Positions 24,261-42,603 of a stretch of 64,000 nucleotides of DNA are shown here, in pieces. The first letter of the stretch is position 1, and each line of letters opens with the position of its first letter. The position numbers and the translations under genes were made by a program. The notes under the pieces are model-generated. The model searched no databases. It was not told the origin of the DNA and worked only from the letters and a program-made list of their open reading frames with translations. The stretch comes from Candidatus Aminicenantes bacterium JdFR-78 (lineage in GTDB: Bacteria > Acidobacteriota > Aminicenantia > JdFR-78), in the NCBI GenBank assembly GCA_002010665.1, contig MTON01000022.1:59966-123965 (forward strand), in the 5' to 3' direction.

Positions 24261-26373
24261 GTTTTATTGGAAGATAAATTCTAAATACAGTTCCTTTTCC
24301 TTCAATACTATCAAATGATAGCATGCCACCCAAGTTTTGTGCAATCCTACTTGCCACTGATAAACCCAAACCAGTTCCTTTTTCTTTAGTAGTAAAAAAC
24401 GGATTAAAAATTTTCTCTTTTATCTCGGGTGAGATTCCACATCCAGTATCCCTTATTTCAATAACTATCTTATTTTTTTCTGAAACACGCGAAACAATTT
24501 TCATCTCACCACCATCAGGCATTGCCTCAATAGCATTTAACATCAAATTAATTAAAAGTTGTTCTAATTGATGTTGATCTGAATTTATAGAAGAAATTTT
24601 AGGGTCGCAATCTACTACAATTTTAATTTTTTGCTTAGAAGCTCTATCATGTATGAGAGCAACACATTTATCAATTATATTTTTAATGTTACATAAAGAA
24701 AAATGTGGTTTAGAAGGTCTTGCAAAACTTAGGAAATTATTAATGAATTTATTCAATCTATTAACTTCCTCAAGAATGAATTTTGAAATTTCTTTTCTTG
24801 TTTTACTATTTATATGATTTTTTTGAAGTGTCTCGGCTGAAGCTGAAATAATGCCAAGTGGATTTCTTATTTCATGAGCTATTCCTGCTGAAAGTTCTCC
24901 TAAGGCAATTAGTTTTTGAGAACGAGCCATTATCCTTTCTGCTTCTTTTAATTCTTCAGCCATGACCGCTCTTGAAAGAGCAGCAGAAACATGCTTTGAA
25001 AATAAAAATAAAAGATCTAATTCTTTTTGACTCCAACCCTTCTTAGACAATTTATTACCTAATAGAATTATACCTTCAACTTGGTCTTTATGTAACAAAG
25101 GAAGAATTAAGGAAATCTCTTCCTTGAATAACAATTGAACGATTTGCGATTTTTCGTAAAAAGATTTTAAAAATTCTATTTCAATTGGCAACCTATATTT
25201 TTTGATAAAATTCATTATTTGATCCGAGTTTGAAATTTTAAACTCGGAATAAAAATTAAAAGAACTCACAATTTCATATTTTTTATTTTTTTTATTCAAA
25301 AGAAAAATAGCTACCTTTTTTACATTCAATTGTTTTTTTAGAAAGCTTACAATTTCTGTGGTAATCTCATTTAAGTTTATATTATCAACTAGAAATTCAT
25401 AAAATTCTTCTATTTTTCTTTTCAAACTGTATCTTCCTCTGTAAAAAATCCTATCCACTCCGTACTCCGTGGCTTTCACGAGAGGTCTAGAAAGGATTAC
25501 AATTAATATAATCAAAAGACTTTCTACAATAATTGAACCTTCATGGGTTTTCTTTCCTATCATCTCACCTAAATTCTTTATTAATAAGACATAGATAGCC
25601 ATAACTATTCCAGATAAAATAAAATATGATATTCCCCCTCTAATTATGAAGTAAATATCAAGAAGATGTAATCTTAAAACCGCGATAGCGAAGAAAAGAC
25701 TTATTAATATGGAATATGTACTAAAAAGATAAAGTAATGGAAGACCTAATTTAAGAAAATGATTTGTCAAATCTATTCCAAGTCCAAAAAGTACCATTAA
25801 GGTAATACCTGTAATGAGATATTTTATCTGGGTTTTCTCGCGTGCTGTATTGATTCGTTTTAATGAAGATATAAGATTGCTTATTCCGATTAAAGAAAAT
25901 ATTAAGATAAATGATGACAATGCAATATAAGAAATATAGAAAGATAAAGGTTGATCAGCTACTACATGATGATAATAATAAATATTTCCGAATTCTTTAA
26001 TTTTTTCGAGCCTTATCTCCATAGAGGAGAAAACAAAAGTTAAAAAGAGTGTTGGTAACAAGTAGAAAAGTACAACTCTTTTTTTACTGTTAAAAAAGTT
26101 CGAAATTTTTCTTGGAAATATTGCAGAAAAATGCAGAAAAAAAACTGAGCTGAAGAAAAAGCCAGCTAATCCAATTTTTGCTCCTATATCAGCAAGATAG
26201 TGTGTTTTACTATTGATCATTATAAAATCTCCAATATCCCATACAGCAAATGAAAAAATATAAAGAAATAAAAGGATATTCTCTGTTTTTTTAAAATTGT
26301 GTGATAGAACAATAAAAGCAATACTTAAATTTATGGTGAAAGCTATAATTGAAGGTATAGAATAATAATTCAT
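24250..26373 (-). CDS. sensor histidine kinase with multi-TM N-terminal sensor region
   Basis: 707 aa; about 8 predicted TM helices in the first 290 aa; HisKA (LSAGIAHEIRNPLG) and HATPase_c (NLMLNAIEAM...IEIRDTGCGI...GTGLGLSV) motifs; stop overlaps the response-regulator start. Confidence 0.85.
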   Translation of the reverse strand: MNYYSIPSIIAFTINLSIAFIVLSHNFKKTENILLFLYIFSFAVWDIGDFIMINSKTHYLADIGAKIGLAGFFFSSVFFLHFSAIFPRKISNFFNSKKRVVLFYLLPTLFLTFVFSSMEIRLEKIKEFGNIYYYHHVVADQPLSFYISYIALSSFILIFSLIGISNLISSLKRINTAREKTQIKYLITGITLMVLFGLGIDLTNHFLKLGLPLLYLFSTYSILISLFFAIAVLRLHLLDIYFIIRGGISYFILSGIVMAIYVLLIKNLGEMIGKKTHEGSIIVESLLIILIVILSRPLVKATEYGVDRIFYRGRYSLKRKIEEFYEFLVDNINLNEITTEIVSFLKKQLNVKKVAIFLLNKKNKKYEIVSSFNFYSEFKISNSDQIMNFIKKYRLPIEIEFLKSFYEKSQIVQLLFKEEISLILPLLHKDQVEGIILLGNKLSKKGWSQKELDLLFLFSKHVSAALSRAVMAEELKEAERIMARSQKLIALGELSAGIAHEIRNPLGIISASAETLQKNHINSKTRKEISKFILEEVNRLNKFINNFLSFARPSKPHFSLCNIKNIIDKCVALIHDRASKQKIKIVVDCDPKISSINSDQHQLEQLLINLMLNAIEAMPDGGEMKIVSRVSEKNKIVIEIRDTGCGISPEIKEKIFNPFFTTKEKGTGLGLSVASRIAQNLGGMLSFDSIEGKGTVFRIYLPIKHEH

Positions 26374-38765: not shown

Positions 38766-40955
38766 TTAGAATCTCCACCAATAGGAAAATTTCACGAAAA
38801 AGTATCTGCTTGAACGGTGATAAACCCCCATTTCATCACCAACTTGTGTGTCATCAATCCCAATATAGAAAACCGTTCCTGGTCGATATTCATAACTGAA
38901 TAGGAAACTATTATATATTTTCCTGTCATAGCTATTGTAATCTGTAATTAACCTAATTGAAAGGGTCTTACTTATCTGATAATTTATTCTTTGTGTAAAA
39001 AGATTAACCTTATATACCCTTTCTCCCCCTTTCCGTTTATAAAATCGTGTGCTATCAAACTTATAAAAAATTCTTAAATTCGTTAAAGGTCTTAATTCTG
39101 CCTGTATTTCATTACCGACTTTATAGCCAAGATATGGAGGATTTCCCCAATAATATATGCCATCTCCCATAGAGAATTCCACTCTTCCATTAAGCCATTT
39201 AAACGGTTCAATAGAAAAATTGAATCTGAATTCTTTCTTATGAAAATCAATTCCCCTATATTTTTCAAATGCTTTTGAAAACACAAACCACAGGTGAGAT
39301 TGTCTCCATCCATTGAGAAACCCAAAAAAGCTTATTACCTCATCTGTAAGAGTATTTTTGAAATCATAAATTCTTCTATATGAAATTGAAGGAGTTATTG
39401 AGATTAAATATTCCTTTTCAGGCAAAAAAGTATATCCAAATCTTGTGTTGAAACTTTTGATATCCTTTCTTCTAATAAATCCACTTGATGCTTCAAATTC
39501 AGGATGAATGGATGTCCATTCAATATTAAACCTTATGTGTCTAGAAGATTGATTCAAACTTATATTGAAAGCAGGAGCTAATGCTGTTTTAGTCTCTCCT
39601 ACTTTGCTCTGAGACCCTAAAAATTGAAACGAAAGCCTGTAATATTTATGAAATTTAAAATGTCCATCAATCCCAAATACACGATTATAATTTTTATTCA
39701 GATAACCTGATGGGCCCATTTCTTTATCTGTTAGAGAAAAACCTATATAAGACTCTGAAAATATATCCTGCCGTAGTCTCAATATATTGATTAATGCCTT
39801 CTCAGAACCGCCTGTTCTATCCTTTTCCATATAAGGAATATCAATTCTAGTTGGATTCTCATCATAAGAGCTCATAAATCCAATTGTTGTTTTTCCTAGT
39901 TTCCCTGTCAATTTAATACCCCACAGAGGATCAATAATCTTTCTAGTATAAACAATATTTATGGGAGTGGAAAAATAATCACTTCCTTCTAAAAAGAAAG
40001 GTCTTTTCTCAGGATAATAAATAGCATATCTCTGATTCACCTCATTTTGTGGTATGTCAGATTCTACCTGGCTAAAATCAGGATTTATAGTTAAATCAGC
40101 GGTCAAATTCGAGGTAATACCGTATTTCAAATTTGTCCCAAATTCAGGGTTAATTTTGCCTCCATCTGATTGTAAAGCAGTAATGACAGGCATTAATTCA
40201 AAATTTCTCCCTTTTTCTATTTCCCCATCAATTATTATTATTCCTGATTGTATCAAAAAACCATTTACATCTCTTGAACGAGGATACCAATATATTTCCT
40301 CATTCTTCCTTCTTATTGTTCTGTTAATCTGTAAGCCCCATTTCTGAACTGGCGAATTCGGGAATCTCAAACTCTTGAAAGGGACAGCAATTTCAATTAC
40401 ATATCCATCTTTATTGATTTTTCCATCAGACAGAAAATAAGTGTCCCAGTTAAAATCTATTTTTTCCCAGCCTCCTCGTCTTCTTCCTCTTCCGCTTTCC
40501 GTAAATATCCCGTCACTCTGTATTCCCTTGGGATTTATTCTAAATACAAATGCCCTTTTTTTATCATTAAAAGTGTCCAGGTAAATCGTGATAAAATCAT
40601 CACCTCTGGCTTTATCCCTTTTTGTAAGAGAAGCTCTAATCTTATTAGGTTCAGAATCATAACAGTAAAAAGCAAAATAAAGAAATTTGCTATCATACCC
40701 AATATAAGCAACAGTTTTCTCACTCGGTTCTGCACCTTCCTTTGGCTCATATTGAGTGAAATTCTCGAGTTTGACAGCCTCCTCCCATATTGGATTCTCC
40801 AGCACTCCATCTATTTTTGGTTTATGAGAAAGTCTGGGAATTTTAATTGTGTAAATATCTTTTGAATTTAGTTGAGAAAAACACAATTGTGGAATCAAAA
40901 AAATTAAAAAAACAAAAATCAAAGAGAACTTCTTGAGTCTCAACACCTCTACCAT
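38766..40955 (-). CDS. DUF5916-like large secreted/outer-membrane protein with N-terminal CBM9-like domain
   Basis: 729 aa; signal peptide; N-terminal carbohydrate-binding-family-9-like segment (DGVLENPIWEEAVKLENFTQYEPKEGAEPSEKTVAYIGYDSKFLYFAFYC); long beta-rich C-region ending FSYWWRF. Confidence 0.6.
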   Translation of the reverse strand: MVEVLRLKKFSLIFVFLIFLIPQLCFSQLNSKDIYTIKIPRLSHKPKIDGVLENPIWEEAVKLENFTQYEPKEGAEPSEKTVAYIGYDSKFLYFAFYCYDSEPNKIRASLTKRDKARGDDFITIYLDTFNDKKRAFVFRINPKGIQSDGIFTESGRGRRRGGWEKIDFNWDTYFLSDGKINKDGYVIEIAVPFKSLRFPNSPVQKWGLQINRTIRRKNEEIYWYPRSRDVNGFLIQSGIIIIDGEIEKGRNFELMPVITALQSDGGKINPEFGTNLKYGITSNLTADLTINPDFSQVESDIPQNEVNQRYAIYYPEKRPFFLEGSDYFSTPINIVYTRKIIDPLWGIKLTGKLGKTTIGFMSSYDENPTRIDIPYMEKDRTGGSEKALINILRLRQDIFSESYIGFSLTDKEMGPSGYLNKNYNRVFGIDGHFKFHKYYRLSFQFLGSQSKVGETKTALAPAFNISLNQSSRHIRFNIEWTSIHPEFEASSGFIRRKDIKSFNTRFGYTFLPEKEYLISITPSISYRRIYDFKNTLTDEVISFFGFLNGWRQSHLWFVFSKAFEKYRGIDFHKKEFRFNFSIEPFKWLNGRVEFSMGDGIYYWGNPPYLGYKVGNEIQAELRPLTNLRIFYKFDSTRFYKRKGGERVYKVNLFTQRINYQISKTLSIRLITDYNSYDRKIYNSFLFSYEYRPGTVFYIGIDDTQVGDEMGVYHRSSRYFFVKFSYWWRF

Positions 40956-41098
40956 TTGGTTATATATTTAAAAACTGAGTCTTTCCCAATTCCGTTGCAT
41001 TCCTCAAAGAAAAAATCCTTAGAATAAAATTATAAAATACACTACTACCTTTAACAAATGTTTTTTTCATTTTCAATTAGTAGCGAGGAAGGCGTTCA

Positions 41099-41115
41099 GT
41101 CAAATTATCGCAGAC
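41099..41115. repeat. 3' arm of perfect 17-bp inverted repeat GTCAAATTATCGCAGAC flanking the RRM gene
   Basis: Exact reverse complement of 41447-41463; lies 14 nt past the stop codon of the minus-strand RRM gene. Confidence 0.8.
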
Positions 41116-41129
41116 CTTCTATTAACTAT

Positions 41130-41390
41130 TCAGAATCTTTTGAATTTTCTCTTATCTTTTCTCTGGGGTCTTGCCTTATCTACTATAATTTTTCTTCCGT
41201 CGAGTTCGTATCCATTTAAACCACTTATCGCTTCTTGTGCTGATTCACTAGTTTTCATTTCAACAAAACCAAATCCTCTTCCTTCAATAATCTTAACTGA
41301 GCTTACTTCGCCAAACTTTTCGAATACTTCTCTTAATTGTTCTTCCCTTGTCCGGTAATTTAAGTTACCCACATAAAGCTTGTTTGTCAT
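41130..41390 (-). CDS. RRM-type RNA-binding protein
   Basis: 86 aa; RNP2 LYVGNL and RNP1 RGFGFVEM motifs; basic C-tail; strong SD AAGGAGGA. Confidence 0.85.
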   Translation of the reverse strand: MTNKLYVGNLNYRTREEQLREVFEKFGEVSSVKIIEGRGFGFVEMKTSESAQEAISGLNGYELDGRKIIVDKARPQRKDKRKFKRF

Positions 41391-41446
41391 TACGGAATCC
41401 TCCTTATCAAATTATCGAACGCCTTACCCCTCGAATCCCTCGGAGA

Positions 41447-41463
41447 GTCTGCGATAATTTGAC
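41447..41463. repeat. 5' arm of the 17-bp inverted repeat (GTCTGCGATAATTTGAC on plus strand) at the predicted transcription start of the RRM gene
   Basis: Preceded on the minus strand by TTGCAA-N17-AATAAT (41498-41470), placing the start at the first base of the arm; a second copy of the core (CAAATTATCG plus GAACGCC, 41408-41424) lies between arm and SD. Confidence 0.75.
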
Positions 41464-41624
41464 AACCCTATTATTCCATAAAAGATACTTTTTTGCAAAT
41501 AAAATATTTTTCAGACTATGAATTACGAAGTTATTGGCTGAGTTATAATTTTTAATTTGATAAATTCTATAAAAATGTTATATTAAATCTCGTCTATTTT
41601 TAGATAGATTGGGAGAAAGTCAAA

Positions 41625-42071
41625 ATGGAAAACTTTAAAAATGCGAAAATTGTATGCTCCATAATACTTTTTACAGAATTCTTTTATGGGATAATTATTA
41701 TTATCCTTAATAAATTTTCAATCATTCAGTTAAAGCCTTCTCAGATTTTAATCAAATCCTTATATTTTATATCTGCTTTAATTATTATCTCTCTTTTTAT
41801 TTTGAAAAAGTTTATATTTTATTCAAAATCAATGTTAAAACTCTCAAATGATGAATTACGGAGGAAAATGTCGGGCATATTTATACTTCTATGCGCTATT
41901 TCAGAGATTATTTCAATTCTCGGATTGATTCTATATTTTATAACCGGTGTTTTTCAAGCCTCCATTCTGCTTGTAGGAGTTTCGATCCTCTCCACTCTTC
42001 TTGTGTTTCCCTTTGATGCAATAGTTTCAAATTACATTGAAGAAATAAGAAGAAGACGAGAATTTGATTAA
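41625..42071 (+). CDS. small integral membrane protein (about 4 TM), unknown function
   Basis: 148 aa; hydrophobic segments; no known motifs. Confidence 0.4.
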   Translation: MENFKNAKIVCSIILFTEFFYGIIIIILNKFSIIQLKPSQILIKSLYFISALIIISLFILKKFIFYSKSMLKLSNDELRRKMSGIFILLCAISEIISILGLILYFITGVFQASILLVGVSILSTLLVFPFDAIVSNYIEEIRRRREFD

Positions 42072-42081
42072 TAGAAGAAGA

Positions 42082-42603
42082 TTATTTTTTTGCGTACTTA
42101 AATAAATTCCCTGCTTTATAAATTTCGTATTGAACTTTGCTCACTGGATTTGCCTGAAACTTCATTTTCTTTGTAAGATTCTCAATCTCTCCTGTCAGAA
42201 GATCTACTTCTACTTTATCTCCATTTTCAAAACAACTCAGTTTTTCATCAAGCTCTGGGAATGTCAAAATAGCGAGACCTGAATTAATTGCATTTCTTTT
42301 GTAAATAGCTCCGAAGGACTGTGCAATTATTAATGAAATCCCCAATGAAATAAAACAATCTACTGCCTGCTGGCGGGAGGACCCTGCACCAAAGTTCTTA
42401 CCTGCTAAAATAATGTCTCCTTTTTTAGCTTTTTTAGAAAAATCCTCCCATCCTTTTAAATTTCCAAGTGCATATTTTCCCATTTCATTTATATCAGTTA
42501 TGTGCAAGTAAGCATTATGATAAATCTGATCTGTATCTATATCATTTATTAATTTTCCCTTTTCATCTATTAAAATCCAGATTCTTCCTTTTATCTTTTC
42601 CAT
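42082..42603 (-). CDS. aconitase-family small subunit, divergent LeuD-like
   Basis: 173 aa; swivel-domain motifs DTDQIYH and AGKNFGAGSSRQQAV; directly downstream of the divergent LeuC-like gene. Confidence 0.75.
   Translation of the reverse strand: MEKIKGRIWILIDEKGKLINDIDTDQIYHNAYLHITDINEMGKYALGNLKGWEDFSKKAKKGDIILAGKNFGAGSSRQQAVDCFISLGISLIIAQSFGAIYKRNAINSGLAILTFPELDEKLSCFENGDKVEVDLLTGEIENLTKKMKFQANPVSKVQYEIYKAGNLFKYAKK

Follow-up and report, generated by a model that had tools for sequence, protein, structure and literature searches.

A predicted end-to-end RNA helix with a competing local partner in the mRNA of a small RRM protein gene of an uncultured Aminicenantes bacterium

The window analysed here is a 64 kb stretch of contig MTON01000022.1 from an uncultured sediment bacterium (Candidatus Aminicenantes bacterium JdFR-78), and it contains on its minus strand a small gene, rbp, enclosed by a perfect inverted repeat. 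All coordinates are those of the window. Comparison with related genomes indicates that the repeat belongs to the structure of the sense RNA, in which the predicted 5' end of the mRNA can pair either with a short partner next to the Shine-Dalgarno (SD) sequence or with a longer one beyond the stop codon. We consider it probable, if well short of certain, that this represents sense-RNA pairing of the 5' untranslated region (UTR) with the 3' UTR, with refolding from the local to the distal partner, most likely as an end clamp controlling mRNA stability. The coding sequence (CDS) of rbp (41130-41390, minus strand), taken from the list of open reading frames (ORFs), encodes a single-RRM protein of 86 aa. 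It matches Pfam RRM_1 with an E-value of 1e-22 and 80.2 bits, compared with a gathering cut-off of 20.7, in agreement with the RRM assignment in the original prediction made for this DNA.

The repeat is formed by GTCAAATTATCGCAGAC at 41099-41115 (plus strand), the exact reverse complement of 41447-41463. The inverted-repeat search and direct reading both confirmed this 17-bp match around the RRM gene, which the original prediction had described, as well as the position of the 3' arm, whose first base lies 14 nt past the stop codon (TGA, 41130-41132, minus strand). With up to three mismatches allowed, the 17-mer occurs at only two sites in the window; shuffled controls gave a mean of 0.10 matches, and none of 100 shuffles reached two. 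Among inverted repeats with arms within 600 nt of each other, the pair is the longest in the window. The runner-up among nearby inverted repeats, at 25295-25425, has 16-nt arms (TTCAAAAGAAAAATAG and CTATTTTTCTTTTCAA) that are 94% complementary and 99 nt apart.

A consensus scan places a sigma-70-type promoter at 41470-41498 on the minus strand, with the -35 box TTGCAA (41498-41493), a 17-nt spacer and a TG-extended -10 box, AATAAT (TGnAATAAT; 41475-41470). Base +7 after the -10 box is G41463, which bears out the earlier reading of TTGCAA-N17-AATAAT as a promoter whose start falls on the first base of the 5' arm. This arm (A, 41443-41463), at the mRNA 5' terminus with G41463 as predicted +1, has the core GUCAAAUUAUCGCAGAC (41463-41447) and a pairing that reaches 41443. 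Its local partner, a' (CGAUAAUUUGAU, 41406-41417), complements positions 1-12 of arm A (helix P1) and ends directly 5' of the SD sequence AAGGAGG (41399-41405), which was read 8 nt 5' of the AUG. The distal partner, A' (41099-41119), lies in the 3' UTR and comprises the core GUCUGCGAUAAUUUGAC (41115-41099) and the extension GAAG (41119-41116), with an offset from the stop codon of 10 nt when the extension is counted and 14 nt for the core. In the predicted transcript the 5'-paired segment is nt 1-21 and the SD sequence is nt 59-65. Both arms are within the UTRs of this one transcript and the 5' arm has two mutually exclusive partners, as had been proposed. The additional copy of the core noticed earlier in the 5' UTR, the third in the locus (41407-41425, plus strand), is real and was recovered by the repeat search; the local stem that it forms measures 11-12 bp and not 10 bp. 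The 19-nt stretches 41100-41118 and 41407-41425 are direct repeats with 84% identity, and an AU-rich strand, GAUAAUUUGA, is present in both a' and A'.

A second complementarity also connects the two UTRs. Element B (AAGGCGUUC, 41417-41425), which occupies the internal loop of the 5' hairpin on its 3' side, complements B' in the 3' UTR (GAACGCCUU, 41097-41089). Together with CCUCG (41088-41084), B' makes up the segment B'-C' (41084-41097), which complements B and the 3' strand of P2, an inner hairpin of the 5' UTR. P2 (41426-41448, ACUCU.CGA...UCG.GGGGU) appears in both the minimum free energy and the centroid structures of the 5' UTR and overlaps the 3' part of arm A; equivalent inner hairpins with different sequences are predicted in other variants. 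As DNA, AAGGCGTTC (41089-41097) and GAACGCCTT (41417-41425) form a 9-bp inverted pair, and the 9-mer is found at only these two sites in the window. The linker between A' and B' is a single U (41098). The original prediction had the 3' UTR copy and GGCGTTC pairing with both 5' elements and so closing the mRNA; the complementarities hold, but a simple nested closure does not, because A:A' and B:B' cross, giving a pseudoknot topology in which the two cannot be drawn together as nested helices.

In order to compare these elements across genomes, homologues were gathered by a scan of reference genomes, a scan of metagenomes, a protein search and a look-up of the contigs encoding the closest proteins. 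Approximately 40 contigs carry the orthologous locus, and these resolve into nine distinct UTR variants: W (the window), L001, L045, L146, L047, L131, L129, L002 and L132. Protein identity among the orthologous variants is 80-93%. L002 is a Candidatus Aminicenantia metagenome-assembled genome (MAG), and the other contigs derive from hydrothermal and Guaymas-type sediment metagenomes; the exact UTR sequences of the window are found in 16 contigs, including GCA_024178865.1, and the genomes GCA_024179025.1 and GCA_024178925.1 also have an identical locus. The promoter region was read in eight variants, and duplex energies and equilibrium folds were computed for eight (in the case of the folds, all but L146). 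MAFFT lost the structural register of the 3' arm at a paired indel, and the pair table was built from the duplex predictions of each variant. RNAduplex applied to the 110-nt flanks of all loci produced huge interior loops and no discrimination, and was replaced by a near-contiguous helix score. An own-versus-permuted arm test with 20,000 permutations was used beside the pair table.

Elements A, a' and A' are retained in all nine variants. The -35 box TTGCAA (TTGAAA in L131), TGnAATAAT and their spacing are kept in all eight variants read, with the start of arm A exactly 7 nt from the -10 box in each; the 6-nt discriminator between them is variable, and an arm held at +7 next to a free discriminator fits transcription beginning with the arm's first base. 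The spacer from the stop codon to A' and the sequence 3' of B' have likewise diverged freely, so that the arms stand out as conserved islands. In all nine variants a helix of 20-22 bp can be drawn from the predicted first base to a site 5-19 nt past the stop codon, and for the eight variants computed the energy of the A:A' duplex is -26.5 to -33.5 kcal/mol. The helix accommodates bulges and wobbles at a range of sites. Two-sided changes occur in column 13 (C:G, U:G and U:A), column 15 (G:C, G:U and A:U), column 16 (A:U, G:U and G:C) and column 21 (C:G, U:G and U:A), and at column 15a an additional G:C pair is inserted in both arms of four variants. On the mRNA strand, every one of the 11 one-sided changes yields G:U or U:G; A·C is never produced. 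A transition gives A·C as often as G:U where RNA pairing is not under selection, and the sign test for 11 of 11, with G:U and A·C taken as equally likely, gives about 0.0005. Each 5' arm pairs better with its own 3' arm than with those of other variants; only 19 of the 20,000 permutations were as good, a test somewhat inflated by shared ancestry. Of eight variants, five have a sense duplex that is stabler than its antisense counterpart by 4.5-8.7 kcal/mol, and in the other three the two are approximately equal. The comparative check for which the original prediction had called thus finds all three elements conserved and the long-range one covarying in related genomes. Covariation and the G:U preference on one strand place the structure in the sense RNA and not in a DNA-level repeat, and on this pattern we take the inverted repeat to be a structural feature of the sense rbp RNA.

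The same observations bear on the idea that the repeat acts as DNA, whether as an inverton, as a looping operator or as the remnant of a mobile cassette. A perfect inverted repeat around a whole small gene, with the promoter outside it, is the arrangement that such an element would have. All of the one-sided changes that are G:U on the sense strand, however, would be C·A in DNA or in an antisense RNA, and the arms covary instead of keeping a fixed recognition sequence. Moreover, neither the non-collinear B:B' pairing nor the third copy a' has a DNA-level rationale, no further copies exist in the window, and in all of the approximately 40 contigs the gene has one orientation relative to the downstream DUF5916 gene, the segment 41116-41446 never being found inverted. 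We regard a DNA-level element as highly improbable.

The local partner a' is conserved in all variants, and its differences are mostly G:U-compatible; exceptions are a single C·A, found in L131, and a G·G at the helix terminus, which L131, L002 and L132 have in common. Change along arm A is distributed according to its partners: columns 1-12, which pair with both a' and A', contain no compensatory change, and columns 13-21, which pair with A' only, contain all of them. Shared positions would need three coordinated substitutions if both pairings of arm A were under selection, which would account for the lack of compensatory change in columns 1-12, and the pattern fits such selection. Elements B and B' are kept in eight of the nine variants; in L129 both are replaced by unrelated sequence, and this variant has a correspondingly longer A:A' helix. 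Duplexes between the middle of the 5' UTR and the 3' UTR (the B/B'-C' region) have energies of -17 to -22.5 kcal/mol in seven variants. Docking of B' onto B with the hairpin intact would be a pseudoknot, and nested cofolding puts other pairs in place.

Equilibrium folding supports a change of partner upon completion of the transcript. With the 3' UTR removed, the probability of A:a' pairing at 37 °C is 0.79-0.96 in seven of eight variants; with the 3' UTR present, the probability that arm A pairs with it is 0.83-1.0 in the eight variants at 10, 25, 37 and 55 °C. Closure between the UTRs is favoured over separate UTR folds by 10-26 kcal/mol in nine of nine variants. In these models the partner switch tracks the completeness of the transcript and not temperature. 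The thermo-responsive switch that had been suggested is not borne out, since the choice of partner is identical at the four temperatures in the eight variants folded and an RNA thermometer is accordingly not indicated at equilibrium. A thermometer of the cspA-leader, ROSE or fourU type was rejected at equilibrium, with SD accessibility shifting only gradually and inconsistently with temperature.

A rival reading gives the gene product or temperature a part. In an autoregulatory or cold switch, along the lines of the original prediction, the RRM protein would bind the AU-rich GAUAAUUUGA strand, or temperature itself would shift the balance between local and distal pairing. Precedents for autoregulation exist in CspA and in the RRM-1 proteins of Bacteroides, which are under feedback involving the 5' UTR in the cold (PMC13370968). 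The 11-nt core is present exactly three times in the window, each time at the rbp locus. Set against this, no partner changes at equilibrium between 10 and 55 °C, binding by the RRM protein is hypothetical, and RNA-RNA pairing suffices to explain why columns 13-21 covary. Such a switch seems to us rather unlikely as the principal function, and the RRM protein may have a kinetic, protein-assisted or cold effect.

The preferred reading, local-to-distal refolding that serves as an end clamp, can be set out as a sequence of steps. Transcription would start at G41463, the base indicated by the conserved promoter, and the first 12 nt of arm A would pair co-transcriptionally with a' to give a 5'-terminal hairpin that ends at the SD sequence. 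Once the polymerase had passed the stop codon, A' would become available to pair with 17-22 nt of the 5' end. Its match to arm A is longer than that of a' and takes in positions 13-21 (41443-41451), which a' leaves uncovered and which could serve as a toehold for strand displacement. At equilibrium A' would replace a' and the mRNA would be closed end to end, with B' pairing with B either in a pseudoknot beside A:A' or as an alternative docking mode. According to the folding models, the hairpin would be present during transcription and the closed form in the mature RNA. A base-paired 5' end is a known protection from 5'-end-dependent decay, and here the 5' end would be paired from +1 in both states and protected in both. 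Since no terminator hairpin is detectable, the 20-22 bp helix past the stop codon would also form a structured 3' boundary against 3' exonucleases. By analogy with other mRNAs, the functional output is most likely the control of mRNA lifetime.

Several points weigh against this proposal. In energy, the 5' hairpin (z=-1.46) and the full transcript (z=-0.64) are no better than shuffled sequences, and as energy alone is not above chance, the case rests on the comparison with other genomes. That comparison comprises nine variants from one narrow clade, with a small number of covarying events that are in part of common descent. Compensatory change specific to the local hairpin is absent, and in L131 this hairpin is not predicted at all, with a probability of 0 even without the 3' UTR. 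Simultaneous A:A' and B:B' pairing with a 1-nt linker would need an unusual geometry. The scan detected no intrinsic terminator 3' of rbp. Where the transcript starts and ends, and whether the mature RNA contains A', are matters of prediction, and the role in stability is argued purely by analogy. Finally, a perfect 20-22 bp duplex is a potential substrate of RNase III, in which case it would destabilise the mRNA instead of protecting it.

The narrowness of the clade (80-93% protein identity) and the fold energies no better than shuffles are also what would be expected if the arms were due to chance or to a recent duplication without function, their conservation reflecting a short divergence time. 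This is scarcely tenable, as the spacer, the sequence after B' and the discriminator have diverged while the arms were kept, the substitutions in the arms are compensated or wobble-compatible, and permuted arms were so seldom as good as a variant's own (19 of 20,000).

RNase III deserves consideration in its own right. In a reading of the icaR or rRNA-stem type, closure would mark the finished mRNA for cleavage within A:A', either maturing its ends or limiting expression. A helix of 20-22 bp, as found nearly perfect in all variants, is of the length class on which RNase III acts. In Staphylococcus aureus, the 3' UTR of icaR pairs with its own 5' UTR in a duplex long enough for RNase III, which cuts it (PMC3868564). 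Cleavage in the present organism is hypothetical, and the bulges and wobbles tolerated at various positions leave no specific cleavage determinant evident. A cleavage site is compatible with the end clamp and does not exclude it; as the explanation of the structure we judge it unlikely.

Control of translation, which was part of the original prediction, is not favoured by the folds. The accessibility of the SD sequence shows no consistent shift between truncated and full-length transcripts at equilibrium, its direction differing between variants, and a strong anti-SD in the 3' UTR is found in only two of eight variants. AGGAGG is kept in nine of nine variants. The duplexes between SD and 3' UTR are weak (-6.8 to -9.5 kcal/mol), apart from L001 and L045 (-15.3 kcal/mol), and an icaR-like 3' UTR anti-SD was therefore rejected as a conserved feature. 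In L001 (3300-3320) and at the equivalent place in L045, the 3' UTR contains CCUUUCUCAUC just past B', which complements the end of a' and the SD sequence (UGAUGAGGAGG) over 11 bp. The icaR mRNA covers its SD region through a UCCCCUG anti-SD and blocks initiation, whereas the rbp mRNA pairs its first 17-22 nt, around 40 nt upstream of the SD, and the 3' UTR motif on the SD region that characterises icaR is confined here to the same two of eight variants. A ribosome-binding site that is not masked points to control of mRNA lifetime, or of the passage from nascent to complete transcript, and not to translational silencing.

The closest structural parallels are the hok and aapA1 mRNAs, whose two terminal elements, one at each end, pair with each other in the full-length RNA. 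While the RNA is nascent, or after its 3' end has been trimmed, the 5' element uses another partner close by, which gives way to the stabler 5'/3' pairing upon completion of transcription (PMC9841398, PMC5416894). The rbp mRNA shares with them the end-to-end helix A:A', covarying and 20-22 bp long, and the conserved local alternative A:a' of 11-12 bp. For the hok family, coupled covariations are reported to have supported the pathway (Gultyaev, Franch and Gerdes, 1997). A timed translation of the hok/aapA1 type would have the closed mRNA translated poorly, with the released a' paired to CDS positions 41353-41363 and the SD and AUG looped; 3' trimming would then remove A', the 5' hairpin would re-form and translation would be restored. 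In favour of this, the elements can be mapped one-to-one, arm A to tac, A' to fbi and a' to ucb or to the metastable partner (PMC9841398, PMC5416894). The CDS site is a possible fourth element, A2 (UUAAAUUACCG, codons L-N-Y-R), similar to arm A and a potential partner of a' after its release; in the full-length L047, L131, L002 and L132 a' is predicted to pair with these codons (+28 to +38), with probabilities of 0.34-0.98. In W, L001 and L045 an A·C mismatch interrupts the pairing and the prediction is lacking, and we treat it as weak because it fails in the window's own sequence.

Timed translation is also at odds with the SD observations given above, that is, an accessibility without consistent change between truncated and full-length RNA and a strong 3' UTR anti-SD in a minority of variants, and with the perfect SD, AAGGAGG, of the window. 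The closed form of hok and aapA1 sequesters the SD and needs 3' processing, whereas SD masking in the rbp mRNA is neither predicted nor conserved. Furthermore, hok and aapA1 are type I toxin mRNAs with an antisense RNA, and the product here is an ordinary RRM_1 protein with no toxin in need of silencing. No antisense gene was identified at rbp; promoter-like scan matches are present on the opposite strand, and no search was aimed at an antisense partner. The rbp 3' element is bipartite with a crossing topology, unlike those of hok and aapA1. As neither SD sequestration nor a toxin/antisense arrangement was found, we do not file the rbp mRNA as a member of the hok family, and hok-type timing of its translation appears doubtful.

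In its functional logic, the stability clamp is closest to hbs of Bacillus subtilis, in which a 14-nt fully complementary stretch of the 5' and 3' UTRs (-19 kcal/mol) limits the access of RNase Y without masking the SD (PMC5737220). The hbs mRNA encodes a small, abundant nucleic-acid-binding protein, and both mRNAs show contiguous 5'/3' UTR pairing and compensatory change. The 5' element of hbs is inside the leader, downstream of hp2, whereas that of rbp is the very 5' end; the 3' element of hbs lies just upstream of the terminator, and no competing local partner is described for it. The nucleases that act on hbs, RNase Y and RNase J1, are known. The rbp helix is longer (17-22 bp), and its 3' element is bipartite and crossing. 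Protection of a 5' end is also familiar from the 5'-terminal stem-loops of the Escherichia coli ompA type, in which a helix at or within a nucleotide of the 5' end slows 5'-end-dependent decay. Those are simple local hairpins, whereas the rbp 5' end would be handed from a local partner to a distal one in the 3' UTR. The authors of the icaR study cite flavivirus cyclisation and luteovirus 3'-5' kissing as a comparison (PMC3868564). These share with rbp the closure of a translated RNA by complementary 5' and 3' sequences through RNA only; they are eukaryotic viral genomes, closed for replication or cap-independent translation, and no evolutionary relationship exists.

The extent of the arrangement was assessed by applying the helix test, with dinucleotide shuffles, to 95 non-redundant bacterial RRM loci. 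Outside the orthologous clade, four of 87 loci reached p<0.05, which is the level expected by chance, and a 5'/3' helix as a general property of bacterial RRM genes was rejected. An adjacent clade (L133, L135 and L138), with 63-69% identity and a different genomic context, has a comparable 5'-terminal hairpin adjoining the SD sequence and no 3' partner by the same test (p=0.38-0.86). Its Aminicenantes-type rbp genes (at 1420-1500 in each) have a peptidase S49 gene on one side and an ECF sigma/anti-sigma pair on the other, with a similar promoter, TTGATT-N17-TATGAAAGAAT. The presence of the hairpin without the 3' partner in this clade makes the distal arm a clade-specific addition; it suggests that the 5' hairpin is older than the long-range arm, which looks like a recent addition to it. 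The distal arm may have arisen by copying of the a' region, given the 84% identity of the direct repeats 41100-41118 and 41407-41425.

Two further groups of RRM loci have related features. In an unrelated RRM clade from WOR-3 or unclassified MAGs (L006:140-600, L007:2890-3350 and L139:700-1160; approximately 55% identity to the window protein), the 5' UTR segment UUUCCCCGAUAUGAU complements the 3' UTR at +7 to +22. A clear intrinsic terminator, GGGGAACAG-UUUA-CUGUUCCCC-UUUCC, has a 5' strand that overlaps this 3' site, so that this clade mirrors the design of the window with the competing local partner at the 3' end instead. The two arm variants differ by compensated changes (CCCCGAU/AUCGGGG and CCCCUGA/UUAGGGG); these are the only two in the databases, too small a number to make L006/L007 a second independent case, and the shuffle p values are 0.013 and 0.027 before correction. 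An Aminicenantes locus, L009 (2900-3450), has two tandem rbp genes, with the promoter and leader start TATAATTTTTTTTTCATTGATGGGGG repeated 3' of the first gene, whose 3' UTR contains CCUGUUCCCCUGUUCCCCUGUUCCC repeats and a short complement, UAUUCUCC, to the 5' leader GGAGAGUA.

Regarding the genomic context, the DUF5916 gene downstream of rbp starts at 40955, and its orientation relative to rbp is constant across the contigs recovered. A promoter-like site, TTGTTA-N17-TATAAT (41029-41057, minus strand, 10 of 12 matches), lies 3' of the rbp 3' UTR element and 5' of the DUF5916 gene. The block GTGTATTTTATAAT is kept in W, L001, L045 and L047. The DUF5916 gene probably has its own promoter, and rbp is consequently likely to be monocistronic. 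A weak AU-rich hairpin at around 41040-41085 is without conservation and overlaps this next promoter, and it was rejected as an intrinsic terminator, being weak and not conserved. Some orthologous loci (L125:2261-2689, L126:2160-2588 and L127:839-1267) have an extra ORF of 142 aa without a Pfam match between rbp and DUF5916, which the window lacks. The upstream neighbour in most relatives is a same-strand gene for a B12-binding radical SAM protein, and in the window it is a divergent ORF of 148 aa (41625-42071) with no Pfam match. Rfam searches gave nothing relevant at E<=10 in 40500-42100, and on neither strand of the whole 64 kb did a family reach its gathering score. The G+C content of the window is 30-34% throughout, and the GC skew is persistently negative.

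A more speculative extension concerns translation itself. The downstream edge of a terminating ribosome lies roughly 14 nt past the stop codon, which is where the helix core begins in the window, and this is the basis for supposing that a protein-free closed loop could persist during translation, to be opened or locked by the gene's own RRM protein on the AU-rich a'/A' strand. We hold this to be distinctly unlikely. If it were true, the loop and the RRM protein would constitute an end-to-end RNA circuit in which mRNA completeness, stability, ribosome recycling and autoregulation are coupled.

The bacterial mRNAs with documented end-to-end pairing are, to our knowledge, few, namely the hok family, aapA, icaR and hbs, and almost all were discovered experimentally in model organisms. 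The rbp case comes from an uncultured lineage and was recognised purely by its sequence. Natural compensatory mutations support it, and it has a three-element design in which a short local and a longer distal partner share one 5' end. The gene belongs to a family of RNA-binding proteins whose regulation in bacteria is only now under study. If confirmed, the rbp mRNA would provide a compact natural model of co-transcriptional refolding, from a hairpin to a long-range helix by strand displacement, and would give grounds for systematic searches of metagenomes for covariation between 5' and 3' UTRs.

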